From Promethearchaeati archaeon (GTDB lineage: Archaea > Asgardarchaeota > Heimdallarchaeia > JABLTI01), in NCBI GenBank assembly GCA_013166835.1, contig JABLTI010000011.1, positions 1 through 47,869 of the forward strand: a stretch of DNA of 47,869 nucleotides. Reading direction: 5' to 3'. Under the pieces are notes generated by a model. It did not search any database. It worked only from the letters and a program-made list of their open reading frames with translations, and was not told the DNA's origin. Position 1 is the first letter of the stretch. Each line of letters starts with the position of its first letter. This document shows, one piece after another, positions 2,801-47,683 of the stretch. The translations under genes and the position numbers were made by a program.

Positions 2801-4604
2801 CTTTCATACTGGGCATCATTCGTCCACTAACCCGATCAACAACATCATCTGATTGCAAGGCATTAATTTCTGCAAGAATTCCATTCATGTCTTTTTCAGC
2901 ATTATCATTTGGGATATATTTCAATCTTGCAATCTTATCTATGATGGGTAAATTCATCATTTCCGGTAGCTTTACTCCTTGATTGTACAATTCCCTCATT
3001 TTGTGATAGAAATCAATGATAATTTTCAGCATTAACCATTGTTTTTGAATGGTTGAGTAACTATCAACATCACTAAATGCGTTTTGCTGTAAGAAATCTT
3101 CCTTCAACATTCTTGCTGATTCTAGAATGATTTTCTCAGATTCAGGTAATGCTTCAGGACCTACTAACTGTACAATGTCTTCTAATTCCTTGTCTTTTTG
3201 TAAGAGACTCATTGCTTCTGAGCGATAAGACATGAAGGCTGGGTTGACATTTTTAATAAACCAGGGAGTCAATTCATTTGTATAAAGAGTGTAAGATATC
3301 AAATAATCAATTGCTGGGAAGTGTCTTCTTGCAGCTAAATCTTTGCTCAGAGCCCAAAAGACTTTGGTGATTCGAAGAGTGTTTTGTGTAACTGGTTCAG
3401 AAAAGTCTCCACCAGGAGGACTAACCGCTCCGGTAATTGTAATTGAACCTTGTCGTTCTTCAGTACTTAGAGTTTTAACTCTGCCAGCTCGTTCATAGAA
3501 TTGAGCAATTTTACTTGCTAGGTAAGCAGGATAACCAGCTTCTCCAGGCATTTCTTCTAATCTTCCGGAGATTTCCCTCATAGCTTCTGCCCATCGAGAA
3601 GTGCTATCAGCCATTAAGGCTACATCATAACCCATGTCACGGTAATACTCTGCGAGAGTCATACCTGTATAGACGCTTGCTTCTCGAGCAGCTACTGGCA
3701 TATTGCTAGTGTTTGCAATAAGAATTGTTCGATTCATAAGAGGCTCGCCAGTATTTGGATCAATTAATTCAGGGAAGTCTTCAAGGACATTTGTCATTTC
3801 ATTTCCTCTTTCACCACAGCCAATATAAACAACGATCTTTGCATCAGACCACTTAGCTAATTGGTGTTGTGAAACTGTTTTCCCTGTACCAAAACCACCA
3901 GGAATTGCACTTGTTCCACCTTTAGCAATGGGGAAGAATGTATCGAAAATTCTTTGACCGGTTAACAAGGGAATGGTTGGTTCTAATCGTTCTTTTATAG
4001 GACGACCAAATCTTACCGGCCATTTCTGTAACATTGGGACATTAATTTGATTACCATTATTCTTCACTTGGCATATAGAATCAAGAACATTATATTCTCC
4101 AGCTTTAACAACACTGGTTAAAGTTCCTTGTACACCAGGTGGAATCATTACTTTGTGAACTACAACAGGACCTTCTTGAACTGTACCAATAAAATCTCCT
4201 GTTGTTACTTTTGTTCCTTTCTCAATGGTTGGTTTGAAAGACCATTTCTTGTCATATTCTAAAGGAAAAGCTACGACACCTCTTCTGATGAAATCATCTT
4301 TAGTTTTTTCAAGAATCAAAGGCAAGGGACGTTGAATTCCATCATAGATTTGTCCAATTAAACCCGGTGCTAATTCTGCACTTAGTCCTGCACCAGTACC
4401 TGTTACAGTTTCATTTGGTAACAAGCCATCTGTTTCCTCATACACTTGGATTGTGCAGACTTCTCCTTGAATTCTGATTATTTCACCGATAAGTCCTTCA
4501 TCACCTACTTTGCAGACCTCATACATTGAGCTCCCAAGCATGCCATCTGCTTCTACTACCGGTCCAGAAATCCGCTTAATTTTCCCGGTTCTTATCTTTG
4601 ACAC
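2793..4604 (-). CDS. atpA: A/V-type ATP synthase catalytic subunit A
   Basis: Walker [35 protein letters not shown] and [12 protein letters not shown]; GTG start after a GAGG-type RBS; the 603 aa length leaves no room for an intein. Confidence 0.97.
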
Positions 4605-7469: not shown

Positions 7470-8609
7470 TTATTCAAACGTTTCAAGACCTAGATCAAGA
7501 TCTTCTTCAAGGTCGTAATCTAATCCCAAAGAATTTATGTCTGAGATATTGGACAGGATATATGGACTTCTTACTCCACTAACTATGATTGTTGCGCGAA
7601 TCTTGCCTTGAAGATCAGGATCTATAAGAACACCGAATTTAACTATGATGTCATTGCTTAATTGATCGGTCACAGCACGAATTACTTCTTCTGTTTGTTT
7701 CAAATTGAGATCTTTGCCACCAGTTATGTTTAGTAAGACGCTTTTAGCGGTTCGAATGTCAACCTCTAAGAGAGGATTACTGAGTGCATCTTCGACTGCT
7801 TCTTGTGCACGATTATCGGGACTACTTGATTCTCCGAGACCAATGATAGCTGCACCACCCTCACCGAGTACTCTACGAACGTCTGCGAAATCAACATTGA
7901 CGTCTCCAGGTCTATTAATTAGCTCAGTTAAGCCGGTAACAGCTCTGATGAGTATTTCATCAGCAACTAAGAATGCTTCTTTCAAAGAAAGATCAGGAAC
8001 GATTTCTATTAATTTTTCATTAGGAACAACAATAGTTGTGTCGCTGCTTTCGTATAATCGTCTCAAACCTTCTTTTGCATTTTGTGCTTTTACTCTACCT
8101 TCAACTTCAAAAGGTAATGTGCAAATGGAAACTGTAAGTACTCCTAGATTCTTGGCAAGTCTAGAAATAACCGGTGCTGCTCCTGTTCCGGTTCCTCCAC
8201 CTAATCCGCAAACAATGAAACACATGTCAACTTGTGAGAGAATGCCTTTTAGAGTCTCACTCGATTCTTCTGCAGCTTCAGCCCCAATTTGAGGGTCATT
8301 CCCTGCACCTAATCCTCGGCATAATTCTCGACCAAGAAGCATTTTCTTATGGCTCTTGGAATACAGCAACTGTTGAGCATCAGTATTAGCTGCTAAAGTA
8401 ATTGCACCAACAAGTCCTGTTTGATTTAGACGAGTAATTGCATTATTTCCTGCTCCACCGACTCCGATAACTAAGATTTTTGCTTGAATTTCTTCAATGA
8501 TCTTTCTTAGATCGGCATCTACATCATTAGAATCATGAAGAGCACCATCTTTTGGAAATAAATCCGGTACTTGTTCTTTTTCTGTTATATTCTTGATAAA
8601 AGATTCCAA
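7470..8609 (-). CDS. ftsZ: Cell division GTPase FtsZ (FtsZ1-like)
   Basis: GVGGAGNN, NTDAQQL, GLGAGNDP, tubulin signature GGGTGTG and T7 loop NVDFADV; TTG start preceded by GGTGAGG. Confidence 0.97.
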   Translation of the reverse strand: MESFIKNITEKEQVPDLFPKDGALHDSNDVDADLRKIIEEIQAKILVIGVGGAGNNAITRLNQTGLVGAITLAANTDAQQLLYSKSHKKMLLGRELCRGLGAGNDPQIGAEAAEESSETLKGILSQVDMCFIVCGLGGGTGTGAAPVISRLAKNLGVLTVSICTLPFEVEGRVKAQNAKEGLRRLYESSDTTIVVPNEKLIEIVPDLSLKEAFLVADEILIRAVTGLTELINRPGDVNVDFADVRRVLGEGGAAIIGLGESSSPDNRAQEAVEDALSNPLLEVDIRTAKSVLLNITGGKDLNLKQTEEVIRAVTDQLSNDIIVKFGVLIDPDLQGKIRATIIVSGVRSPYILSNISDINSLGLDYDLEEDLDLGLETFE

Positions 8610-16344: not shown

Positions 16345-19300
16345 CTAATAAATATCATTGGAGGAGAATTCATCTGCTAAATTCTCTTGTTTTAATTCAT
16401 TTATTGTTCGAAAGACTTCTTTGAAGATTGTTTTAGCTTCATCTTCTTTTTCATCTGAGCTTTTCTGAGTGAATGTTTGCTGATTACCTACTAGGATGAG
16501 TTTAGCTTTTGCTCTACTTATTGAAACATTCATTCTTCGCCAATCACGATGCAATTGACCAATTATATTACTATCATTACTATTTGTCAAACTAAGAATT
16601 ATTATTTCACGCTCATCCCCTTGAAATCTATCGACAGTATCAACTCGTAAGTTTTCTAGAATTTTTTCGGAGATATTATTTGCTCGAAGTTCTCCGTAAA
16701 TGAGATTATTTTGATGCCTATAGGGAGAAATGACCCCAATTTGCTTTGCAATCTCAATACGATCATCCTCATTATACAGAGCTAGAAATTCAGCAATGAT
16801 TCTTCCTATGATTTGTGATTCTCGAATATTAAAACGAGATTCAGTCTGAATATCGATTTCTTCTATTCCTTCAAGAGCTGCTTTGTCTTTTTCTGTGTTA
16901 ATAAAAACAACTGGTTTAGTAGAAAAGAATAGTTTCTCAATTAATTCTGAAAGTGAGTTTTTTGTATTATTTATCGACTCATAGGATTCAAGAAATTCAT
17001 CGATTGTGTGTTTTCCGATTGCATCATTCGCAGGAATATAATTTACTGAGGGATAAAAGGCGTTCTTTATTATTCGAGAGATTGCTTCATTCATTCGATA
17101 ATGTTCAGATAGGATTACAACATTGTCAGTTTTTCCTGCCCACATGGTAAACAAACGTTCGAATAACGATGTCTTTAGTGTGCTTTCTTTCTTCAATCCA
17201 GCATTTAGCAGTACTTTTGGAACAGTTGGAGTATGCTCTATTGTTTCTTCAGAAACTACTGGTGGTAATTGCTTGTGATCACCCACTAAAACTACTCGAG
17301 GATATCCTTCTGTTGATTCTGTTTGAAGGCATCGATGTCTAAATGCCCCTAGACTTGCAGGTTCAGTAGCTTGTCCTGCTTCATCAACAATTACCCAATG
17401 AAAATTCAAACCCTTTAGGAGATTATTTCCTACACTTCCGAGAGTACCTACGATAATTCCAGCTTTTTGATAAAGCTCTATCCCTTTCTTTAATATTGTA
17501 ACTAATATGTCTGCATCTGCTTTTTCGCTGAGAGTTTCATCAAATTTCGTTTTATTAGGGAGAATATATTCTTGAACCTCTTCTGAGTGATCCTTTGAGT
17601 ATGATTCTAAACGAACAATATATGGTTTTAATTCCTTAAACGAGGATAATTTTACGATAACCTCATCTGCAGCTCGATGTGTATTTGCTAAGATAAGAAC
17701 AGGTTTGGATAGATTTGATTCCTCTTCATCTACAAGTTTTGAATTTAATAAATAATATTCCGAATAGATTTCCCTAGCTAATTGAGCGATCATTCTTGTT
17801 TTTCCAGAACCAGGTGGTCCCTGAACAAGTAATATGTCTCCTGGCTGTAAACCTAGAGCTTTTTCAATTGCTTCTACTTTAAATTTGTCAAGGTCTTTTA
17901 TCAAACCGGATCTTGGAATAGGTTTTATTTTATTGGGTTTTGATATACCGAGAATTAATTTTATTAAGTAAGGTAATTCTTTGTCAGTTATTTTTCTGCC
18001 GAGAATGCCAGATCGATTCATTGATTCAAAGAGGAAATCTGTTAAAGAACGTGATTGCCATTGAGAGAAAATTACATTCTCAACTTGATCTACTCTGAAT
18101 TTATCTGCTATTTTCCCTCTTCTTTTCAATGTTGATCTTGCCTTGATTATGATTTCCTTTGAACTAAGAGATGTGATTTTTCCTTCTACACTAAATATTT
18201 CACCTGGAAGTAAGTCTGAGGGTGTTATGAAGACATCATCGCCTTCTCTAATTCTAGTGAAGATTTTCTTATCAGATGATAAAGTAAGGACATATCGATA
18301 TGGATCGAATTTCTCCAATTTTAGATTAGATATTGTTACGCCTTGATTTTCTAGCTTGTCAATCTCTGTTGTTGCTAATTTATGTAGATGTCTTTTCACA
18401 TTATTTAATTCGAATTTTAATTGTCTGAAATACCAAGACCAATATTCATAGAGATCTTGAGGAAAATGTAACCAGATATTTGGATCAAGCAATCTTTTTC
18501 CGTCAGAACAGATTCCTTGTTGGTTTGATGGGCAATAATTACAAATTCTACGCCAATTACTACTCAATAAATTGAAATCAGTCCCAAGGGCTGGCATAAA
18601 TCTTCTCGAGAGGAATCTGTTGATTTTGTACCGATCATATCCCGAAAGCAAACCGGATTCAATAGCAAATGCTATGTTCCTTGTTTGTAAAAGTAAATCC
18701 AAGTATTCGTCACTTTGATCGTCTGCTAAATCGATTTTTCGTCTTTTTATTACTGCATGATCTTGGAGAGGAATAATTTCAGGATTATCATCTTCTAATC
18801 CTGCATCGGCATCAAAGAACTCAATATATGCTTTTGGTGCTTTCCCTGTTACCTTCTTTATAATTTCATGATACGCAAAAGCTTGTACACCACCAGGATG
18901 AGTTACCCCAGTTAATGGATCATAATCGGATTCAATGAAATATCTACTACCCGTTTTTATCTCCCAGAGTTCATCATAATCCTTTTTCAAGATTATTTGA
19001 TCTGCTCTTCCAGATATTCCTCTTTCCGGAGAAAACAATAGAGTTTCATTAAGGAGTTGATTCTCTTTAATATCCTTAAATTGCTCTGCTATTTGATCTA
19101 CGATAATTGAATCAACTTGCAATGGCAATTTCAAATCTTTATTTGGTCCACGAAAGTAGCTTCGTCTTAATAAGACAGAGAAATTATCCCGCCATTCATC
19201 AAGAACTGCTCGATTATATGATTTCATTGCTCTTACTGGGTCTGCACTTCTTACCCACTCATTAGAGGCATATTGTATCCCTTTATGAATAGCATTCCCT

Positions 19301-19818
19301 CTTACAAAACCAATAGAAGTTGGGGCATTTCTAATTGTTCTTTGTAATCCAAGAAATGATTGATAAAAATACTTAGCAGGACAATTAAAAGCTGATTCAA
19401 GTTCAGCTCCTGTAATATTATAATCAGGGGAGATTATGAATTTGAGAATTATTAATTGACCACTTTCAGTTTCTTGTTCGGTAGCATTCTCCTTCTCAGG
19501 TTTCCAGATAGCTTTCATTATTTGTAATAATAACTCCGGGGATCTTCCTTCAGAAGCTAGCCCAGCATAGCAATACCTTAACACGTTATGATAATGAGAG
19601 AATGTTGATTTTTTTGTTCTTCCAGGAAACCATTCCATCGGATAAATAACCGCAGTACATATATGGGCTCTTGTTTTTGGATCCATTAGCTTAAGTACTA
19701 ATTGATATTTCTCTCCTTCCGCTTCTCGAGTCCTTTCAGCTAATACTTGAAAATCTACAAATTTTGGAGCATTTGGATTAGCTTTCAAAATCTCCAAATG
19801 GGTGAATATTTTATCCAC
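16345..19818 (-). CDS. Dna2-like nuclease-helicase (Fe-S PD-(D/E)XK nuclease fused to SF1B Upf1-like helicase)
   Basis: Nuclease: FNCPAKY, GNAIH, ETLLFSPERGISGRAD, WEIKTG, QAFAY, CNYC..C. Helicase: QGPPGSGKT, ANTHRAAD, VDEAGQ, GDHKQLPP, SLFERL, HYRM, SPYRHQ, TVDRFQGDE, RRMNVSISRAK. Confidence 0.9.
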   Translation of the reverse strand: MDKIFTHLEILKANPNAPKFVDFQVLAERTREAEGEKYQLVLKLMDPKTRAHICTAVIYPMEWFPGRTKKSTFSHYHNVLRYCYAGLASEGRSPELLLQIMKAIWKPEKENATEQETESGQLIILKFIISPDYNITGAELESAFNCPAKYFYQSFLGLQRTIRNAPTSIGFVRGNAIHKGIQYASNEWVRSADPVRAMKSYNRAVLDEWRDNFSVLLRRSYFRGPNKDLKLPLQVDSIIVDQIAEQFKDIKENQLLNETLLFSPERGISGRADQIILKKDYDELWEIKTGSRYFIESDYDPLTGVTHPGGVQAFAYHEIIKKVTGKAPKAYIEFFDADAGLEDDNPEIIPLQDHAVIKRRKIDLADDQSDEYLDLLLQTRNIAFAIESGLLSGYDRYKINRFLSRRFMPALGTDFNLLSSNWRRICNYCPSNQQGICSDGKRLLDPNIWLHFPQDLYEYWSWYFRQLKFELNNVKRHLHKLATTEIDKLENQGVTISNLKLEKFDPYRYVLTLSSDKKIFTRIREGDDVFITPSDLLPGEIFSVEGKITSLSSKEIIIKARSTLKRRGKIADKFRVDQVENVIFSQWQSRSLTDFLFESMNRSGILGRKITDKELPYLIKLILGISKPNKIKPIPRSGLIKDLDKFKVEAIEKALGLQPGDILLVQGPPGSGKTRMIAQLAREIYSEYYLLNSKLVDEEESNLSKPVLILANTHRAADEVIVKLSSFKELKPYIVRLESYSKDHSEEVQEYILPNKTKFDETLSEKADADILVTILKKGIELYQKAGIIVGTLGSVGNNLLKGLNFHWVIVDEAGQATEPASLGAFRHRCLQTESTEGYPRVVLVGDHKQLPPVVSEETIEHTPTVPKVLLNAGLKKESTLKTSLFERLFTMWAGKTDNVVILSEHYRMNEAISRIIKNAFYPSVNYIPANDAIGKHTIDEFLESYESINNTKNSLSELIEKLFFSTKPVVFINTEKDKAALEGIEEIDIQTESRFNIRESQIIGRIIAEFLALYNEDDRIEIAKQIGVISPYRHQNNLIYGELRANNISEKILENLRVDTVDRFQGDEREIIILSLTNSNDSNIIGQLHRDWRRMNVSISRAKAKLILVGNQQTFTQKSSDEKEDEAKTIFKEVFRTINELKQENLADEFSSNDIY

Positions 19819-21727: not shown

Positions 21728-23251
21728 TTATTTCAATTCATAGATTTTGGAGTATTCTTTACGAAGATAATTAAGATAGTACTTTGTAGAAAGCTCTTCT
21801 CCAGTTATTTTCTTCACTAATTCTAAAGGATCATAAAGATTCCCCATTTGGTGTACTTTTGTCTTTAACCAATCTATGACTTTATTCAAGTCACCTATCT
21901 CCATATCTTTTCTCCAATCGGGAATTTCTTGGTTCATTTTCCATAATAATTGACCGTCAATTATATTGCCGATTGCATAGGAAGGAAATGAACTAAAACC
22001 ACCACCAGACCAATGAACATCTTGTAGGAGTCCTTCCGCATTATTCTTAATATCTACCCCAAGATATTCTTTCATCTTACTATTCCAGATTTGTGGGAGA
22101 TCATCAAAAGAAATTTTCCCAGCAAACAAATCTTTCTCGATTTCGTGTCGAATAATCACATGCATTGAATAGGTTACTGGATCAGCTTCTACTCTAATCT
22201 TTGAGGGGATTACTCTGTTAATCGCACGAACAAAAGGATCTAATTCTATATCCTTAAATATCCCTCCAGTAATTTCCTTTAATTTTGGAAGGAAATATTG
22301 CCAAAACTCATAGCTGCGACCTATAAAGTTCTCAATAAACCGTGATTGTGATTCATGAAAACCATCTGAACAACTATAACCAATGGGTTGATATTTATGC
22401 TTTTGTGGCAGGTATTGTTCGTATAAGGCATGACCAATTTCATGTAATACTGAGAAAAATGAACTTGAGAAATCATCCAAGTGGTAATTAGTGGTTACTC
22501 TAACATCATCATAATAGCCTGTTGTGAATGGATGAACAGTCTCATCAATTCGACCGGCATTCAAATCATAATTAGTTACTTTTGCTAGTTCTTCAGAAAG
22601 CTTTTCTTGAATATCCTTTGGACACGCTCTTTCAATAAGAGAATAATCGGGCTGTTTTGGTGAATTAACTATTGCTTTTATTAATGGCTTTAAGCCATCA
22701 CGTAACTCATCAAACAAGTCATCTACAATTTCTCGAGTAAAACCAGGTTCATTCAGATCAAGCAGAACATCGTAAGGATCTTTTGTAGGGTCAAGACAGT
22801 TGGCAAGCTTTTTCATTAGATCAAATATCTTGATTAATTCAGGTTTAAACAACTCATAATCTGATTTAGCAAATGCTTTTTTCCAAATAGCATTCCCAAG
22901 AGCACTTTGTTTAGATATAGCTTCAACTAATTCCTTAGGGATTTTGGTGTTACGATCATAATCTCTTTGAAACAAGTAGATATTTCTTTTTTCAACTGGA
23001 GTCAATTTTTCATAATTTTCATTTGCTTTAATTTCTTCTAGGAGAGCACCAATCTCAGGATCAATGGTTTTCCCATGAATTAATCCGCTGATAATAGCTA
23101 GTTCTTCTGATCGTTGTTCAACACCTTTTTCTGGCATATATGTATCCATATCCCAGTAAATGTTCATTTCTATACTTTTTAATAGAACAATTTCTTTGTA
23201 TTTTTCCAACAATTTTTTGTAAAGATCAATTTCTTGAGTTACTTTTGACAT
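21728..23251 (-). CDS. Carboxypeptidase, family M32
   Basis: HPF, DDVRVT, HEIGH (HEXXH), HESQSR, IRVEAD and GLLQDVHW motifs. Confidence 0.95.
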   Translation of the reverse strand: MSKVTQEIDLYKKLLEKYKEIVLLKSIEMNIYWDMDTYMPEKGVEQRSEELAIISGLIHGKTIDPEIGALLEEIKANENYEKLTPVEKRNIYLFQRDYDRNTKIPKELVEAISKQSALGNAIWKKAFAKSDYELFKPELIKIFDLMKKLANCLDPTKDPYDVLLDLNEPGFTREIVDDLFDELRDGLKPLIKAIVNSPKQPDYSLIERACPKDIQEKLSEELAKVTNYDLNAGRIDETVHPFTTGYYDDVRVTTNYHLDDFSSSFFSVLHEIGHALYEQYLPQKHKYQPIGYSCSDGFHESQSRFIENFIGRSYEFWQYFLPKLKEITGGIFKDIELDPFVRAINRVIPSKIRVEADPVTYSMHVIIRHEIEKDLFAGKISFDDLPQIWNSKMKEYLGVDIKNNAEGLLQDVHWSGGGFSSFPSYAIGNIIDGQLLWKMNQEIPDWRKDMEIGDLNKVIDWLKTKVHQMGNLYDPLELVKKITGEELSTKYYLNYLRKEYSKIYELK

Positions 23252-23272
23252 TTTCCAGCACCACGTTATCCT

Positions 23273-24808
23273 CTAAAAATCATAAATTTGCGAGTATTTC
23301 TCACCAGTGGCTTCTATGAAATACTTGGCAGAGAATTCTTTCCCTGTAACATTCTTAATTAAATCAAGAGGATCGTAGAGGTTTCCTTTATTACGAATAT
23401 TTGTATTTAACCAACCTAGAATATTTGTTAAATTACCATTTTTCATTTGGTCCTTCCACTCAGGAATGTCTTTAGTTAATTGGGTTTGAAATTGCCCATT
23501 GTAATAACTTCCCAAAGCATATGTTGGGAAATAACCAAACAACCCCCAAGCATAATGAGTATCTTGGAGAATTCCTTCAGTATCATTTTCGATGTCAATA
23601 TCTAAGTATTCCTTCATTTTTTCATTCCAGAATGATGGTAATTCAGACACTGAGAGCTTGTCTGCGAATAGTTCCTTCTCCAATTCATATCTTAGTATGA
23701 TGTGTAATGAATAGGTAACTGGATCCGCATGTATTCTAATCTTTGATGGAATTACTTGGTTAACAGCATGAATAAATGGTTGTAATTTTACATCGTCAAA
23801 GAGTCCTTTAGTGAGCTCTTTGAATCTTGGCAAATAGAATTCCCAAAATTCGGAACTTCGACCAATAATATTTTCAATAAATCTTGCTTGACCTTCATGC
23901 ATAGCAGCAGAAGATGAAGAACCAATTGGCTGATATTTGAATTTAGCGGGATAATTTTGCTCATATAGAGCATGACCACATTCATGCATATTTGCGAAAA
24001 ATGAATCAGTAAAATCTTTAGTATTATAACTAACGGTAATTCTTACATCATCGAAATATCCAGTGGAGAATGGGTGAACAGCAACATCTATTCGACCACC
24101 CTTTAAATCATATTGAACTATATCAGCAAGATCATGAGCAACATTCCTCTGAATATCAATTGGACATTCTCTTAGAATCAAAGAGCTATCTGGTTGATTT
24201 GGGGAATCAACACATGCTTTAATGATTGGAATCAAACCTGCTTTGGCTTCTTGAAAGATTTTATCATAGATTTCTTGGGTAAAGCCTCGCTCATAATTAT
24301 CGAGTAAAACATCATAGGGATCCATATCAGGATTAAGATAGGCTGCTTGCTGCTTCTTCAAATCTATCATTTTCTCAAGTTCTTTTACATAAATAGAATA
24401 ATCAGCTTTTGATTTTGCTGCCTTCCATTTTTGTGTGGTAAGAGCACTATGTCTTGTTAATTCTTGAGCAAAGGATGTTGGAATTTTTGTAGCTTTATCA
24501 TAATTCCTCTGGATAAGGACAATATTTCTTTTTTGAACATCTGAAAGTTTGTCGAAATCTTTGTGAAACTGGATTTCTTTCAACAAAGAACCAATTTTTG
24601 GATGAGTATTACGTTCATGAATTAACCCACTCATAAGAGATAATTCTTCGCCACGTTGCTGGGCACCTTTCTTTGGCATCATAACTTCAAAGTCCCATTG
24701 AATTTGCCCACTAACATTTCTAAGAAGAAGAATCTCTTTATATTTAGCAAGGAGCTTCTCATAAAGATTGATTTTTCGTACAACTTTAACCAACTTACAT
24801 TTCTCCAA
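23273..24808 (-). CDS. Carboxypeptidase, family M32 (tandem paralog)
   Basis: HPF, DDVRIT, HECGH, HEGQAR, IRIHAD, GILQDTH and GYFPTY. The start codon is uncertain by a few codons. Confidence 0.95.
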   Translation of the reverse strand: MEKCKLVKVVRKINLYEKLLAKYKEILLLRNVSGQIQWDFEVMMPKKGAQQRGEELSLMSGLIHERNTHPKIGSLLKEIQFHKDFDKLSDVQKRNIVLIQRNYDKATKIPTSFAQELTRHSALTTQKWKAAKSKADYSIYVKELEKMIDLKKQQAAYLNPDMDPYDVLLDNYERGFTQEIYDKIFQEAKAGLIPIIKACVDSPNQPDSSLILRECPIDIQRNVAHDLADIVQYDLKGGRIDVAVHPFSTGYFDDVRITVSYNTKDFTDSFFANMHECGHALYEQNYPAKFKYQPIGSSSSAAMHEGQARFIENIIGRSSEFWEFYLPRFKELTKGLFDDVKLQPFIHAVNQVIPSKIRIHADPVTYSLHIILRYELEKELFADKLSVSELPSFWNEKMKEYLDIDIENDTEGILQDTHYAWGLFGYFPTYALGSYYNGQFQTQLTKDIPEWKDQMKNGNLTNILGWLNTNIRNKGNLYDPLDLIKNVTGKEFSAKYFIEATGEKYSQIYDF

Positions 24809-36081: not shown

Positions 36082-36708
36082 ATGATCAAAATGAAAAAAA
36101 GATCAAAAATTATTCTTGTCATATTTCTCGTATTAGTTACTTTAACTGGAATTATTGTTCCTCTGATTCCTTTTATGTTGTTTACTCCGGCCTATGGTAC
36201 TCCTTCTTTTGAATTTCCTATGGTTGAACCTCTCAATATTACTAGTTTGTCTGCCTATAACACCCCAGATTGGGGGGAACCGGGAGTATTTCACAATGGT
36301 ATTGATTTAGCGATTAGTGGTCCAACTCAACTCATCTCTCCATGCTATGGGATTGTAAGCAATATTTGGTATAACATTAATCCATATTCTGAGGGAGAAG
36401 TAGCAATGATCCACGTATCCATAATGGTTAATTATGGTTGGTCTCTAAAACTAGTTTTTGAACCATGGGCAAATACAACGGAGATTCGAGAACAACAATT
36501 AGCAGCAATAGTAGTTAAAGTTGGAGATAAAGTCAAACCTGGGGATTTAATTGGAACGTTACTGTATAATTATGACTATCCTCATCTGCATTACATGATT
36601 ATGCATTTTGGAACTGATGTTTGCCCATTTGCTTATTCATCAGCAGAAGCTAAAGCAATCTTCATTGAAATTGCCACTAGAACTAATACCACCATTTGTT
36701 ATCCTTAG
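36082..36708 (+). CDS. Membrane-anchored M23-family (LytM-like) metallopeptidase
   Basis: N-terminal basic patch and TM helix; HxxxD (FHNGIDL), VKVGDKVKPGDLIG and HxH (PHLHY), followed by VCP. Confidence 0.78.
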   Translation: MIKMKKRSKIILVIFLVLVTLTGIIVPLIPFMLFTPAYGTPSFEFPMVEPLNITSLSAYNTPDWGEPGVFHNGIDLAISGPTQLISPCYGIVSNIWYNINPYSEGEVAMIHVSIMVNYGWSLKLVFEPWANTTEIREQQLAAIVVKVGDKVKPGDLIGTLLYNYDYPHLHYMIMHFGTDVCPFAYSSAEAKAIFIEIATRTNTTICYP

Positions 36709-36798
36709 TGTTTTTTTTGATTAAATTAGTGATAAAGTTATGAATCAGAACAGCTAGTAGTTATATTACAAAAACAAACCAGTTATGAGTTGATTCTT

Positions 36799-37533
36799 TT
36801 GTGTGGAAGATTTGCTAGATTCTCACCCGCCCATGTGTTTAGGATGTTGTTTCAATTAAACGAGTTTCTTGAGCTTCCTCCTCAGTACAATATTGCTCCA
36901 GGACAAGACATTTATGCTGTTCGAGGAATCATTGTGAGAGACGAACAAACAAGAGCAGCTGCTATAAACAACTATCAAAAAGAAGTTGTTCCTTTCAAAT
37001 GGGGATTGATTCCTTTCTGGGCTAAAGACCCTACAATTGGGAATCGGATGATTAATTCTCGTTCTGAAACCATTAGTGAAAAACCATCTTTTAAAGCAGC
37101 TTTCAAGAATCATCGCTGTCTAATCCCAGCAGACGGATTTTATGAATGGCAAAAGAAGAGAGATGGACCAAAACAACCCTACTTTATTCATTTAAAGGAG
37201 AACCAACCTTTGGCTCTTGCAGGTATTTGGGATAAATGGAAAAGTCCTGAAGGGAAAGAAGTAGAATCTTGTTCTATACTAACCACTGAACCAAACAAAG
37301 TAGTAGAACCTATACACAAACGAATGCCTGTGATAATTGATCCTAAAGATTTCGATTTGTGGTTAAACCCCGAAAACAAGGAAATAGATCAAGTCAAACC
37401 TCTTTTGAAACCTTATGATGCCGATAAGATGGAAGCTTATCCCGTTCCTCTCTATGTAAATAAACCAGAAAACAAAGGGGAACAATGTATTACAAAACTC
37501 GTAGAGAAGTACAAGCAACAAAAATTATTCTAA
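36799..37533 (+). CDS. SOS response-associated peptidase (SRAP; YedK/HMCES family abasic-site crosslinking protein)
   Basis: (M)CGRF, YNIAPGQ, WGLIPFWAKD, INSRSET, RCLIPADGFYEW, KQPYFI and IHKRMPV. I moved the start from 36790 to the TTG at 36799 so that Cys is residue 2. Confidence 0.95.
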   Translation: MCGRFARFSPAHVFRMLFQLNEFLELPPQYNIAPGQDIYAVRGIIVRDEQTRAAAINNYQKEVVPFKWGLIPFWAKDPTIGNRMINSRSETISEKPSFKAAFKNHRCLIPADGFYEWQKKRDGPKQPYFIHLKENQPLALAGIWDKWKSPEGKEVESCSILTTEPNKVVEPIHKRMPVIIDPKDFDLWLNPENKEIDQVKPLLKPYDADKMEAYPVPLYVNKPENKGEQCITKLVEKYKQQKLF

Positions 37534-37653
37534 GCAAGCAACTTCTCAAGGGAACTTTTTCCCGGAAACGATTTGTTCCGTGCATTTTTTTCGACAAAAA
37601 TACTTACAGTTGACTCTCACTTTCGGTCATCTATTAATTAAGGTCTACTCTAA

Positions 37654-40653
37654 ATGTTCCTCGAAAATGAACTGAGGATTTGCAGCCCTGCTAAGAGGAG
37701 AAGGGTAATCAAGTTGGAGACCACAGTAAATATGAATCGAAAGCAAGAGGTTAGGTTCCTACTAACTGACCTTGATTACAAGATGCCAGAAGAAGAAGGT
37801 CAGCTACCTACTATTAGGTTATTTGGAAAAACGGAGGATACCCAAGTTCTTGTGAAAATTCGTGATTTTGTTCCCTATTTATATGTTAAAAAAAACAAAG
37901 ACATTGAGTTTATTATTCAAAACGATCCAATTATTAGTCGCTGGCAAATTGGGATAGAAGAGGTTACTTTACGACGATATTTCTGGGCAGGTGAGAGAGA
38001 AAAAGTCATCAAGCTTTATGGACTCGACCCTAGAAAGATTTTTGACATTAGCAATGAACTGCAAAAACTGGGTCTCGAGACGTTTGAAACAGATATTCCG
38101 TATCTCAAAAGATTTCTGATAGATAATAGCATCAAGTGTTTGAATGTCCTTGCAGTGAAAGCTACTAAGAGCGAGCGAAAAGGAAATGAGCTGCATCTTG
38201 AGGCTAGTTTTAGGGATATTCAGACTGTCTCTGATTCAGAAATCACCACTCCTGTATTATTTTATCCATTGAAGACCATGGCTATTAACGTGAAAGTCGC
38301 TCGAGAGGACGAGACGATTCAAGAGTTGTTGCAAAAAAAGAATCGTCCAATCCTAGCCATCAGTACGATGTGGGGTGAAGACACTAAACCTGAAAATGGC
38401 AAATTATTCATTTTACAAGAAAATTCGGAAGAAGAAGAGAAAAGAGTGTTAATGGACTTCATCAAGTATTTTCAAAAGATACAACCAGATATCCTCTGCA
38501 CTTTTCAAGGGGATTCGTTTGATCTGCCCTACCTCATCCATCGAATGAGTGTTCTCGGCATCCCTACTCATTTATTATCTATGTTCAGAGATGAACCGAG
38601 TTATTATTCCGGACAATTGCTTTCGTATAGGATGAAGGGAAGGATGGTTTTTGATTTAGCACTAAGAACCTGGGGCATCCACCCTCCTTCTGGTAAGAAA
38701 GGAATATACGATGTTTCGGGAGAAGTTCTTGATAGAGGAAAATTCGGGGTGAAGAGAAAGGAAAACGGCGATAATTTCGTAGAGTATTCAGCGGGATTAG
38801 GAGAAGCTAATGCAGATAGAGTCTTTTGGACTCTCTGGAAAGAGTGGGTTGTCGAAGGAAAGAAAGAAAGCTTAAGCCTTTTAGCAAAGCGTTGTTTTTA
38901 TGATTGTAAACTGATTTTTGACTTGTATTGGAATCTTGGAATGACCGGGTGGATAGAAACCCTACGAGTAACTGGTTTTCCAACAGCAGAAGCCAATAGT
39001 TGCACTGAAAGACTCAACGGAGAATTTGAGTTGATGCGGTACATGCGTCGAAAAGGAATTCTCATCCCGAAACGACCTGACGCAACACAAGTGGAGAAGA
39101 ATAGGCTATTGCGGGAAACCCATCCTCACGAGGGGGGAACAGTGCTCTATCCAAAGGGTTCTCTTCATACGGGAGTTCTCATCGCAGATTTCCGCTCAAT
39201 GTATCCAAGTGTGATGATTGCTCACAATGTTGGAGGAGAAACATTAAGGCAATGGATTGAAGCAAGTGATTATGGCGATCCGAAAAAGCTTTTCGACAAA
39301 CAATCTCGGTCCTGCCTTTCAATCATGGAAGAGACTTTGATTAGTAAGAGAATTAACAAGAAAAGCGAAATAAAACGACTCTCGAAACTGCTGGAAGAAA
39401 CAACTGACCAAGCAGAACGAAGCAACATACAAGGAACAATAATTGTGCTTGAGAGAGAACAGAACTCTATGAAAATAGTAGCCAATTCGATGTACGGAGC
39501 CCATTTCTACATTCGGAGTCGCTTCTATACCCAAACACTGGCATCAGCTATTGCAGACAGTGCGAGGACGTACCTTCTGGGCATTGAAGAAGGTCTTGAA
39601 GAGGTTTCGAGAACGGTCACTCCTTGCGAATTAATTTATGGGGACACAGATTCTACTTTCATCAAAATCTTAGATGAGAGTATCTTCACAGAAATTTATG
39701 CTGAAACTAACCTTGAGAAAAGAGAGAAACTCATCAGCAAATTAATGCGGCAAGTAAATGCGATCCTAAAAGAGATTAATAACAAACTTCCAAATCCTCT
39801 CGAGTTAAAATTTGAGGATATTGCTTACCGAGTTATCTTTAAACCTGATAGAAAGAAAGCCTATAGTTACATTAGTTTACTCACTGAAGATTTCAAAGTG
39901 AAGGGATTCGAGGCAGTTCGTTCTGATTGGTCTCCTCTTGCCAGAACGGCTCAAAGAAAAGTTTTGGATATTCTGCTAAGCCACCCCAAAAATTCGAGAG
40001 AAAACGAAACTGAATTTCAAACTGCAAGACGCTTTCTAATGGCTCTTGGCACTAAAGTCCTGCAAATGTCTACTGAGGAACTACTTCCTAAGGTTGTTAT
40101 TCTCTCGCCAATTCGTCGTCCTCCGAAAGATTACAAAGCGAAAGCACCCGCGGTGCAAGCCTTTGTGAATTATGCCCCTCGAGAGAATTTACAGGTCGAC
40201 AAAGAATGGATGGATTATGATAAATTCCCCTGGGTAATTGTTGCTGGGAAAGGATCAGTGTATGACCGGGCGAGGCATCCAAAATACGTTGATGATATCG
40301 ATAGAGAACACTACGTGACAGAAATGCTTCGTTGCTGTGAGGACCTTGGGGTGAAAGTTTCCTTGAAGGAAGTTAAAGGAGCTCTTCCTGGTCGATTAGA
40401 TCATTTATTTGCCAGTGTAAGTGAAGATGTAATGGTAAAAGAGGAAGAAATTATTCAAATCGAGGATGATGAATTACTTGAGGTTGATGAAAATTCTGAC
40501 ATCATTGAAATCATTAAACCCATTCAAAGTGGAGAGTTAGAATGGAGGAAGAAAAAGAAAGGTATTAAGAGAAATGTAAAAAGGCAAAGAGCAGCTGGGC
40601 AAGCTGCTTTGACGCTATTCGCTAACTCTGATGAAGTAATTACTCCTGAATAA
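37654..40653 (+). CDS. polB: Family B DNA polymerase with intact polymerase motifs and degenerate 3'-5' exonuclease
   Basis: Motif A ADFRSMYPS, motif B KIVANSMYG, motif C YGDTDS, KKAY and KGFEAVRSDW. N-terminal domain PTIRLFGKT...FVPYLYV and FETDIPYLKRFLID. The start may be 20-26 codons downstream. Confidence 0.93.
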   Translation: MFLENELRICSPAKRRRVIKLETTVNMNRKQEVRFLLTDLDYKMPEEEGQLPTIRLFGKTEDTQVLVKIRDFVPYLYVKKNKDIEFIIQNDPIISRWQIGIEEVTLRRYFWAGEREKVIKLYGLDPRKIFDISNELQKLGLETFETDIPYLKRFLIDNSIKCLNVLAVKATKSERKGNELHLEASFRDIQTVSDSEITTPVLFYPLKTMAINVKVAREDETIQELLQKKNRPILAISTMWGEDTKPENGKLFILQENSEEEEKRVLMDFIKYFQKIQPDILCTFQGDSFDLPYLIHRMSVLGIPTHLLSMFRDEPSYYSGQLLSYRMKGRMVFDLALRTWGIHPPSGKKGIYDVSGEVLDRGKFGVKRKENGDNFVEYSAGLGEANADRVFWTLWKEWVVEGKKESLSLLAKRCFYDCKLIFDLYWNLGMTGWIETLRVTGFPTAEANSCTERLNGEFELMRYMRRKGILIPKRPDATQVEKNRLLRETHPHEGGTVLYPKGSLHTGVLIADFRSMYPSVMIAHNVGGETLRQWIEASDYGDPKKLFDKQSRSCLSIMEETLISKRINKKSEIKRLSKLLEETTDQAERSNIQGTIIVLEREQNSMKIVANSMYGAHFYIRSRFYTQTLASAIADSARTYLLGIEEGLEEVSRTVTPCELIYGDTDSTFIKILDESIFTEIYAETNLEKREKLISKLMRQVNAILKEINNKLPNPLELKFEDIAYRVIFKPDRKKAYSYISLLTEDFKVKGFEAVRSDWSPLARTAQRKVLDILLSHPKNSRENETEFQTARRFLMALGTKVLQMSTEELLPKVVILSPIRRPPKDYKAKAPAVQAFVNYAPRENLQVDKEWMDYDKFPWVIVAGKGSVYDRARHPKYVDDIDREHYVTEMLRCCEDLGVKVSLKEVKGALPGRLDHLFASVSEDVMVKEEEIIQIEDDELLEVDENSDIIEIIKPIQSGELEWRKKKKGIKRNVKRQRAAGQAALTLFANSDEVITPE

Positions 40654-46543: not shown

Positions 46544-47683
46544 TTAGAAGCATCTCAAAACAGCGCTTGGGCCGAGATCTTTGTATTCTTTCTTGGTGAC
46601 CCACATCTTTTGGAAGGTCTTCAAGCTGGAAAGGATTGAACCTCCAATCCATACAGAATATCTCCTCTCGGGAGGAGCGATGATTTTGACTTCGATTCCC
46701 TCAGGAACCTGTTCGGTTAATTCTTTGTGAAGTCTCTCCTTGAGTCCACTGAACATGGTGGAACCACCAGATAATACGATGTTCTGGTAAAGTTCTCGTC
46801 TCAAGTCAACATCACACTTGTTGATTGCTTGGAAGATTGCGTCATCAAGTGCTTGGGCTTCCCTACCAATTTGTTGTGGTTGGAAGAAGACTTCAGGAGC
46901 GAGGAATCGTTCAGTACCAATGGTTAAAACATTGCCATCTGGCATTTGATATGTTTTCTCCATACCTGAAACTTTCTCAGCTAGTTGTAGTTCCTTTTCG
47001 GGATCTAATGCAACGTAACATAATTTCTCCTTAATATCTCGCACTATTTCGAGTTCAGCACTACTGGTTAGTGAATAGCCTTTCTGTCGTAAAAGTCTTC
47101 GGAAGTAATTTGTGATATCTCTGCCTGCTAAGTCGATTCTGTCAATTGCGTGGGTCAAAGCGAAACCTTCGTAGATAGGGACAATGTGAGTTACACCGTC
47201 ACCAGAGTCAACAACTAAACCAGTTGTTCGACCGCTAGCGTAAAGTGAAAGAACTGCTTGCATAGAAACATACATGGCTGGAACATCAAATGTTTCAAAC
47301 ATAATTTCAGCCATCTTTTCGCGGTTGTGTTCAGGGTTCAAAGGTGCTTCAGTTAAAAGAATAGGGTGTTCATTTGGGTTTTCACGTAAATCATTGTAGA
47401 AAGTAAAGTGCCAGATCCTCTCCATTGCGTCCCAGTCTTCGACTGTTCCGTGCTCAATGGGGTAGAGTAATCTTAAAACACCTCTTAAGTTAAGAGCTTC
47501 CTCTCCGATATAGTATTCACGCACATAGTGTTCAACGTCAGTCATGATTGATTGGTATTTTGGATAGCCAATCAATGTTGGAAAGACACTTCGTGGCTGG
47601 TCTTCTCCGGCATAACCATTCTTAGACAAACCAGTGCCGTTGTCGATTACTAACGCTTTCTCCTGTAATATTTCTTCGGACAT
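46544..47683 (-). CDS. act: Eukaryote-like actin (Asgard Lokiactin type)
   Basis: [115 protein letters not shown] and C-terminal RCF. Confidence 0.98.

Follow-up and report, generated by a model that had tools for sequence, protein, structure and literature searches.

Does an archaeal SRAP gene lying directly upstream of a family-B DNA polymerase (PolB) with a degenerate exonuclease site work with that polymerase in the tolerance of DNA damage, or are the two genes neighbours by descent only? The question is raised by a 47,869-nucleotide contig from an archaeon of the class Heimdallarchaeia (JABLTI010000011.1 of assembly GCA_013166835.1; this whole stretch is referred to below as the window), for which a first-pass annotation, made from the sequence alone, had proposed a two-gene unit analogous in function to the eukaryotic HMCES/Pol zeta pair. 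We found that the polymerase belongs to an exonuclease-dead clade of B3-like paralogues that is real and apparently undescribed, and that SRAP accompanies it wherever this could be assessed. The features discussed are collected in Table 1, and papers are cited by PubMed Central number.

The window polymerase and its exonuclease site

The product of the polymerase gene matches the Pfam families DNA_pol_B (E=5.4e-46) and DNA_pol_B_exo1 (E=2.8e-24). The window genome contains three PolB genes, and the one on contig C54, which has textbook exonuclease motifs, encodes a protein that shares 46% identity with the window polymerase across 905 residues; because the alignment of these two paralogues is gapless around the motifs, the mapping of the motifs is unambiguous. 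At ExoI, D-I-E of the C54 paralogue corresponds to N-V-K in the window polymerase (D to N and E to K), and both carboxylates are lost. At ExoII, NGDNFD corresponds to QGDSFD, with loss of the Asn and retention of the catalytic Asp, and at ExoIII, YSLTD corresponds to RCFYD, with loss of the Tyr and retention of the Asp. At the positions of the canonical B3 proofreading site, the window polymerase thus reads NxK, Q..D and R...D. The first-pass annotation had described all three exonuclease motifs as altered; every string it gave was correct, but only at ExoI have carboxylates been lost; the Asp residues of the other two motifs are still in place. Polymerase motifs A, B and C (DFRSMYPS, KIVANSMYG and YGDTDS) are intact, as had been noted. 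From these residues we infer that exonuclease activity has been lost, and we hold with considerable confidence that the enzyme is probably exonuclease-dead and polymerase-active.

The start of the polymerase gene was also revised. The longest open reading frame (ORF) begins at ATG 37654, which leaves the 120 bp between the two genes that had been annotated. The ATG at 37732 is preferred; GGAGAC lies 10 nt upstream of it, ATG or GTG is found at the equivalent position in 11 of 12 aligned orthologous loci, and the gap measured from it is 198 bp.

Conservation and origin of the exonuclease-lost clade

The altered motifs of the window polymerase are shared by an entire clade. In an alignment of 68 database homologues with the three PolBs of the window genome (the counts include the window protein), the ExoI Asp was absent from all 26 members of the exonuclease-lost clade and Lys occupied the Glu position in 23 of the 26, whereas D.E was kept in all 43 other homologues. 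The ExoII Asn was replaced in 25 of 26 members and the ExoII Asp retained in 26 of 26; the ExoIII Tyr was kept in only 2 of 27, and the ExoIII Asp in 24 of 27, the remaining 3 having Glu. Motif C read YGDTDS in every member. Because the same changes recur across the clade, the exonuclease substitutions are beyond chance.

In a maximum-likelihood tree of 63 rows, from which 8 partial rows shorter than 800 residues had been dropped, the exonuclease-lost clade was monophyletic (23 rows; Shimodaira-Hasegawa-like approximate likelihood ratio test (SH-aLRT) support 100), and the exonuclease-intact polymerases of the same organisms formed its sister clade (25 rows; SH-aLRT 99). Joined, these clades had an SH-aLRT support of 100 and stood apart from the single-copy orthologues labelled Hodarchaeales, a topology that indicates a single duplication and a single, later inactivation. 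Of the 12 genomes of the family, 10 contain both paralogues. Within the exonuclease-lost clade, identity was 0.52 in the exonuclease domain and 0.63 in the palm-fingers region, compared with 0.60 and 0.73 within the intact clade, which is the same ratio; by this measure of the sequences, the exonuclease fold of the exonuclease-lost clade is under purifying selection, and such selection in turn argues for a working non-proofreading polymerase rather than a decaying copy. The homologues are 940-1010 residues long, with intact reading frames in more than 20 independent assemblies.

When 400 genomes of the phylum were searched, matches of at least 52% identity to the window polymerase were confined, apart from the G031 contig discussed below, to its own family, in which an orthologue was present in 11 of 12 genomes, including that of the window, and absent from G086. 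The lack of both genes in G086 is uninformative, as the orthologues of the flanking PaaK-like ligase and ABC ATPase are missing there as well.

A complete SRAP gene upstream

The product of the upstream gene matches the Pfam SRAP family (PF02586) over the entire profile (positions 1-214 of 214) with E=5.1e-75 and 252.1 bits, against a cut-off of 27.1. Its best sequence matches in the PDB were 2f20 (8.6e-35), HMCES (8.4e-26) and YedK (~1e-18), and its FYEW Glu and IHKRMP His align within stretches identical to HMCES. The start chosen by the ORF finder lies three codons before TTG TGT at 36799-36804; we take this TTG as the probable initiator because it places a Cys directly after the start, as the SRAP family needs. 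All ten aligned SRAP orthologues of the family begin with a start codon (TTG in five, ATG in five) followed by Cys-Gly-Arg-Phe, and residues C2, N86, E116 (in FYEW) and H173 (in IHKRMP) are invariant among them. The Cys2, Glu and His picked out in the first-pass annotation are therefore all in place, with the Asn intact in addition, and the window SRAP is very probably active. The gene is single-copy among the several thousand genes of the window genome.

The SRAPs of this family end in K/R-Q-x-x-L-F in 13 of 14 cases, the sole exception ending in KQQTLE. The SRAPs of some other Heimdallarchaeia families (f2 and f5; L035-L040) carry a canonical PCNA-interacting protein (PIP) box, QxxLxxFF/WF/YF, at the C terminus, and human HMCES likewise ends in a canonical PIP box. 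The SRAP homologues of family f6 (L041-L044) begin with MPSRF or have no Cys altogether, and so lack the Cys2 nucleophile. A search for SRAP fusions returned 14 SRAP proteins longer than 428 residues, none with a polymerase domain, which we rate as weak evidence.

SRAP adjoins the polymerase at all assessable loci of one family

The coordinates of SRAP matches were compared with those of polymerase matches in the reference genomes. SRAP was directly upstream of the exonuclease-lost PolB and co-oriented with it at all ten reference loci having upstream DNA (G000, G081, G082, G083, G084, G085, G087, G090, G091 and a G031 contig). A metagenome scan yielded ten true relatives, and SRAP lay upstream at each of the seven loci that retained upstream DNA. 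Several of these metagenome loci duplicate reference genomes, and all loci together represent eight distinct lineages from both subclades. Thus, the same-strand arrangement with SRAP upstream is as first annotated and is not unique to the window genome, and at none of the 17 assessable loci was the exonuclease-lost PolB found apart from SRAP. An interface prediction for SRAP with polymerase residues 1-455 plus 880-973 returned a score of 0.00, which is uninformative either way.

Some loci required individual attention. G081 was considered as an exception and rejected, since the 135 bases at the contig end upstream of its PolB encode the last 43 residues of a SRAP. This genome has two SRAP copies (L010, G081:C16, and L078, G081:C45) whose last 126 bases show 90% nucleotide identity; the copy truncated at the contig end is the one with the polymerase behind it, and the presence of two copies could mean either that two strains share a bin or that the gene was truly duplicated. 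In G088 and G089, contig ends interrupt the locus, the SRAP contig of G088 stopping just past the promoter-like motif described below. The G031 locus (G031:C220, L011) is a 5.4-kb SRAP-PolB contig binned in a genome of another family; its PolB is 98% identical to that of a member of family f1, and on this sequence match the contig is probably mis-binned.

A conserved spacer with a promoter-like element

The spacer between the two genes is 191-212 bp long in 12 loci. Its elements follow one order, namely CGAC(A/G)AAAATACTT, then TCTC(A/C)C(T/C)T, a TATA-like box, and GGAGAC before the polymerase start, and the element is invariant even though the flanking proteins are only 52-96% identical. Because this conserved spacer holds a promoter-like element and a ribosome-binding site, separate transcription of the polymerase gene is likely, and the two-gene unit that had been proposed is not what the spacer suggests.

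The 14-mer of this element occurs in 0-3 copies per family genome, and its reversed control in none. In G085:C406, it lies 12 nt before the ATG of a 658-residue ORF, a placement resembling the B recognition element (BRE)/TATA promoter of a leaderless mRNA. With extended similarity, it is also found upstream of a C4 zinc-ribbon protein of 83-88 residues in G000:C107 (L070, ~3063-3076, minus strand) and G084:C42 (L085); the best Pfam match of this protein (E=0.0017) is below the cut-offs. A 17-mer regulon search in the window genome found one further site at no more than one mismatch, located ahead of such a small zinc-ribbon gene, and two-mismatch matches were at the control level. The 14-mer could be either a strong BRE/TATA promoter or the mark of a small regulon. 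An Rfam scan of 36600-37900 gave only a chance-level match (E=0.44). An inverted repeat upstream of the promoter-like motif was considered as a terminator hairpin or operator and rejected, as its pairing and covariation were reached by 114 of 500 and 64 of 500 shuffles, respectively.

Structure and subfamily of the polymerase

The best PDB sequence matches of the window polymerase were Thermococcales PolBs (2.9e-41 to 1e-34), compared with 9e-18 for Pol alpha. An AlphaFold2 model was built on a 22-sequence clade alignment. In a Foldseek search with this model, the top 40 matches were all archaeal PolBs, with the Thermococcales enzymes (KOD, 9N, Tgo, Pfu and Deep Vent) at E ~1e-39 and a template-modelling (TM) score of 0.76; the first Pol delta entry ranked 41st and the first Pol alpha entry 50th, and the top 50 held no Pol zeta entry. 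On its nearest PDB and fold matches and the homologue tree, the window polymerase is assigned as a B3-derived, naturally exonuclease-minus enzyme.

The predicted local distance difference test (pLDDT) score of the model was ~90 across the N-terminal and exonuclease domains and below 50 in the tail (residues 888-973), which is Cys-free and modelled as disordered. In the modelled fingers, helices 528-556 and 560-589 are linked by only three residues, T557-T558-D559. The tail contains a PIP-like motif in which, across the clade alignment, Q957 is invariant and L960 nearly so, and through which the polymerase may bind PCNA.

Repeated loss of ExoI among B3-like polymerases

A profile-free search of 1.84 billion representatives was used to look for other polymerases of this kind, and the following figures refer to the 113 relatives of 700-1100 residues listed by it. 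Besides the two representatives of the exonuclease-lost clade, nine of these relatives lacked the ExoI D.E, and four close exonuclease-lost relatives were confirmed by finer alignment. One of them, P0091 (= G033:C15:388450-391068), is the B3-like orthologue of the sister family f3 and is matched by 27 of 31 f3 genomes at E<=1e-150. In all eight f3 sequences examined (P0091 and L087-L092 and L094, from G026, G017, G020, G011, G015, G014 and G023), D.E is absent, with S/N/G/K/R-x-V/I/F at ExoI, and the polymerase motifs are retained; five of these sequences have lost the ExoII Asp too. A search with the window polymerase gave a single match per genome in 25 of 28 matching f3 genomes, which contain other PolB types as well. 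SRAP was found in only 1 of 31 f3 genomes, on the contig of G031 that is probably mis-binned.

A tree of 47 PolB rows required at least four changes of exonuclease state. Further exonuclease-dead lineages are represented by P0050, P0051, P0087 and P0097. P0087 and P0097 are close relatives without the ExoI D.E and each is sister to an exonuclease-intact sequence, so ExoI has been lost at least four times among B3-like polymerases; P0087 itself had no match at E<=1e-180 in 83 genomes of the class. Exonuclease-dead B3 polymerases are thus recurrent in Heimdallarchaeia, independently of SRAP.

A possible role in damage tolerance and its alternatives

The explanation that we favour is that the window holds two DNA-damage genes, with the exonuclease-dead polymerase extending at SRAP-shielded sites, and we give it a probability of roughly 0.5; on the statement that the two proteins act in one pathway, our judgement is evenly balanced. 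At a stalled fork or gap, SRAP would shield an abasic site, and the polymerase, tethered to PCNA, would extend from the terminus, mismatched or opposite the lesion, at which one of two Y-family polymerases had stopped or, as an alternative step, would fill in across the shielded site. It could extend such termini because an enzyme without proofreading is unable to idle between synthesis and excision. Once the duplex had been restored, self-reversal of SRAP and ordinary base-excision repair would follow, and ever since the duplication the two genes would have been passed on side by side. For the polymerase, we infer a part in lesion tolerance. Coupling is plausible because SRAP is single-copy here, because its family is known beside non-proofreading polymerases, and because no assessable exonuclease-lost PolB occurs without it. 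In addition, the two Y-family polymerases and the PolD replicase of the window genome leave a niche for an extender or gap-filler like the exonuclease-less Dpo2 (PMC8764526). The analogy with HMCES and Pol zeta drawn in the first-pass annotation has an experimental precedent, since Pol zeta-Rev1 extends across HMCES crosslinks and thereby triggers their release, which takes place in duplex DNA (PMC10505908). The two-gene unit attached to that analogy was weakened.

Several observations weigh against this explanation. The complete SRAP copy of G081 has the usual upstream neighbours and no polymerase downstream. The pair lies in a block of 8-10 genes that is syntenic in the family (GH3-like / PaaK-like / (M23) / SRAP / PolB / (hydrolase) / ABC ATPase / permease, bracketed genes being present sometimes) and is no better conserved than its unrelated neighbours, the PaaK-SRAP adjacency being as constant as that of SRAP and PolB. 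SRAP occurs in 75 of the 400 phylum genomes, 64 of them outside the family, and no PolB of any kind was found near 40 other-family SRAP loci (from 40 of the 64 genomes, with flanks of ~5 kb on each side where the contig allowed), which indicates that the linkage is one evolutionary event; these 40 loci share none of the neighbours seen in the window. As family f3 has an exonuclease-dead B3-like PolB without SRAP, such a polymerase needs no SRAP. The two genes, judged by their spacer, are probably transcribed separately and not as an operon; the catalytic Asp of ExoII and of ExoIII is still there; and the fingers loop of the model is of the short T-T-D type of accurate polymerases, not the long type, the elongated loop being tied to Pol zeta (PMC4150786).

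Much of this evidence is also what would be seen if the duplicated PolB had come to lie next to SRAP in the family ancestor, had been kept there by regional synteny, and acted independently, repairing DNA or filling gaps alongside PolD as non-proofreading B3 polymerases may do across Heimdallarchaeia. Unrelated neighbours, the PaaK-like ligase and the ABC transporter, hold their positions equally well, the polymerase gene is preceded by a promoter-like element and a ribosome-binding site of its own, and the f3 polymerases, the repeated loss of ExoI among close relatives and the 40 loci without PolB all agree with such independence. Yet the chance landing of a non-proofreading polymerase beside a single-copy SRAP is improbable given the known neighbourhoods of SRAP and mutagenic polymerases (PMC3765255, PMC11791011), and the two genes are never separated at the assessable loci; we regard independence as possible but doubtful. 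A replicative specialisation, in which a Pol alpha-like primer-extension polymerase without proofreading lies beside SRAP incidentally, appears improbable. In its favour, Pol alpha has been proposed to originate in a similar way, by duplication with loss of proofreading (PMC12680538), the fingers of the model have the accurate type of loop, the tail is of PCNA type, and both the fold and the sequence searches matched Pol alpha. However, a Cys-rich C-terminal domain that could serve a B-subunit or primase is missing, the tail being Cys-free and disordered, the clade is limited to one family, the genome has PolD and two other PolBs, and no linkage to primase was found in the neighbourhood.

The remaining two alternatives concern the protein itself. 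If the ExoII and ExoIII Asp residues and others nearby rebuilt a metal site, the enzyme might still proofread, and the near-universal retention of these carboxylates (Asp at ExoII, Asp or Glu at ExoIII), together with the well-conserved and confidently folded exonuclease domain of the model, would fit. However, both ExoI carboxylates are gone in nearly all clade members, with Lys fixed at the Glu position in most; the catalytic Tyr is missing from 25 of 27 members, and 25 of 26 have no ExoII Asn. Removing both ExoI carboxylates is the standard route to an exonuclease-minus archaeal PolB, and we consider surviving proofreading very unlikely. That the gene is a pseudogene, a mobile-element polymerase or an assembly artefact has nothing but the degenerate exonuclease motifs to recommend it; full-length frames with invariant polymerase motifs recur across independent assemblies, the gene lies in a syntenic part of the chromosome, its position in the tree falls inside the host lineage's own PolB, and the stretch is present in DNA runs from 9 studies, so that this explanation is hardly credible.

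A bolder version of the damage-tolerance explanation would make the polymerase a dedicated, PCNA-tethered partner of SRAP that synthesises across SRAP-shielded sites and so brings about SRAP release, as a convergent counterpart of HMCES plus Pol zeta, with the dead exonuclease pocket (Lys at the Glu position; Arg, Gln or His at the Tyr and Asn positions) put to new use as a site that binds, or acts like a lyase on, the damaged strand or crosslinked protein. We think this version unlikely. If it were true, the repeated loss of B3 proofreading would amount to a division of labour in the style of Pol alpha and Pol zeta in the closest archaeal relatives of eukaryotes.

If the coupling of SRAP and the exonuclease-dead polymerase is real, the locus would provide a compact and tractable archaeal model for the handing of a shielded abasic site to a non-proofreading B-family polymerase, for crosslink release once duplex DNA is restored, and for the birth of specialised polymerases by duplication and loss of proofreading. 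Duplication followed by loss of proofreading has been put forward to explain how eukaryotic Pol alpha and Pol zeta arose, and here it is found in the archaeal class nearest to eukaryotes. Without the coupling, what would still be new in the literature searched is the exonuclease-dead B3 clade and at least four independent losses of ExoI, including a family with only an exonuclease-dead B3-like PolB; both bear on the role of B3 polymerases in archaea that contain PolD. In the accessible portions of that literature, we found no account of such a paralogue clade from Heimdallarchaeia or of SRAP being linked to it, and the supplementary tables of PMC7544198 and PMC12680538 may list the sequences. 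That SRAP genes can be paired with mutagenic polymerases is, in general terms, already known. The first-pass annotation had not recognised the arrangement as a described system, which stands for the exonuclease-dead B3 clade but not for SRAP-mutagenic polymerase pairs, which have been published (PMC3765255, PMC11791011).

Genome context

The window also encodes a Dna2-like nuclease-helicase (PD-(D/E)XK plus AAA_11/AAA_12; 16345-19818, minus strand), FtsZ (7470-8609, minus strand), two tandem M32 carboxypeptidases (21728-24808, minus strand) and an actin homologue (46544-47683, minus strand; E=8e-135), the last of which agrees with the assignment of the host to the Asgard archaea. No LexA or Orc1-type regulator was seen near the SRAP-PolB pair.

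Table 1. Features of the SRAP-PolB locus, in window coordinates.
Feature	Coordinates	Strand	Remarks
SRAP/YedK/HMCES-family gene	36799..37533	+	244 aa; putative TTG start, giving Cys at position 2
SRAP motif FYEW	37138..37149		
SRAP motif IHKRMP	37312..37329		
SRAP C-terminal tail KQQKLF	37513..37530	+	family-specific, conserved
Intergenic spacer, ~200 bp	37534..37731	+	T-rich tract after SRAP, promoter-like element, putative ribosome-binding site
Promoter-like element	CGACAAAAATACTT 37592-37605; TCTCACTT 37615-37622; TATA-like 37632-37641	+	invariant in aligned loci
GGAGAC, putative ribosome-binding site	37716-37721	+	before polymerase start
B3-like family-B DNA polymerase paralogue, predicted exonuclease-inactivated	37732..40653	+	973 aa; longest ORF from 37654
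ExoI, degenerate, AINVKV (DxE to NxK)	38281..38298	+	alignment to intact paralogue
ExoII, FQGDSFD (Asn to Gln, Tyr to Phe, catalytic Asp kept)	38503..38523	+	alignment to intact paralogue
ExoIII, RCFYD (Tyr to Arg, Asp kept)	38890..38904	+	alignment to intact paralogue
Polymerase motif A, DFRSMYPS, intact	39187..39210	+	sequence, alignment
Polymerase motif B, KIVANSMYG, intact	39472..39498	+	sequence, alignment
Polymerase motif C, YGDTDS, both Asp present	39637..39654	+	sequence, alignment
C-terminal PIP-like motif QAALTLF, in disordered tail	40600..40620	+	clade alignment, model

Comparison with known systems

The window SRAP resembles YedK and HMCES in having a full-length SRAP domain, Cys2 after the initiator, and the Asn, Glu and His of the active site; it differs in being archaeal (Asgard) and in ending with KQQKLF instead of the PIP box of some other Heimdallarchaeia SRAPs. 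The polymerase shares with the Thermococcales B3 PolBs (Pfu, Tgo and KOD) and their laboratory exonuclease-minus variants the polymerase motifs and a short T-x-D fingers loop, and these enzymes are its best match in both sequence and fold. In contrast to Deep Vent, its fingers helices are ~10 residues longer, as they are in its intact paralogue, and it bears a long acidic and basic disordered tail that the Thermococcales enzymes lack. A lesion-bypassing variant of Thermococcus PolB, Z1, required an exonuclease-minus background (PMC4150786); unlike in the laboratory variants, the loss of proofreading predicted here is natural, with Lys fixed at the Glu position.

PolB2 enzymes are defined by a motif C with only one Asp, by a D(K/R) motif and by the absence of ExoIII (PMC7544198), and assignment of the window polymerase to PolB2 was ruled out, as both Asp residues of motif C, the ExoIII region and its Asp are present. 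The first-pass annotation had already set the polymerase apart from PolB2 by motif C, and its position as sister to an intact B3-like clade bears this out. PolB2/Dpo2 is nonetheless similar in being an exonuclease-less B-family enzyme that exists alongside proofreading PolBs and Y-family polymerases, and the exonuclease-less Dpo2 is a translesion extender (PMC8764526); by analogy, it is likely to be a functional counterpart of the window polymerase. The neighbours described for PolB2 include PPB2 and RadA-like partner genes (PMC11791011), and the ORFs flanking the window pair gave no RadA-like Pfam match.

Assignment to Pol zeta (Rev3) was likewise ruled out by the Cys-free tail, the short fingers loop of the model and the archaeal B3 nearest relatives. 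Both are exonuclease-inactive, polymerase-active B-family enzymes, the window polymerase being so judged by its residues only, but the window polymerase has no Cys-rich C-terminal domain or large N-terminal insert, and its fingers loop has three residues. The resemblance to Pol zeta is convergent and does not reflect subfamily homology.

The closest parallels to the arrangement itself are the bacterial neighbourhoods in which SRAP genes adjoin mutagenic polymerases (UmuDC, DinB and ImuA-ImuB-DnaE2; PMC3765255) and the enrichment of SRAP near polB2 in archaea and bacteria (PMC11791011). As in those neighbourhoods, SRAP here adjoins a co-oriented polymerase that is predicted not to proofread. 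The window polymerase differs in being B3-derived with a complete motif C, rather than PolB2, Y-family or DnaE2, in probably forming its own transcription unit, and in occurring beside SRAP in one family only.

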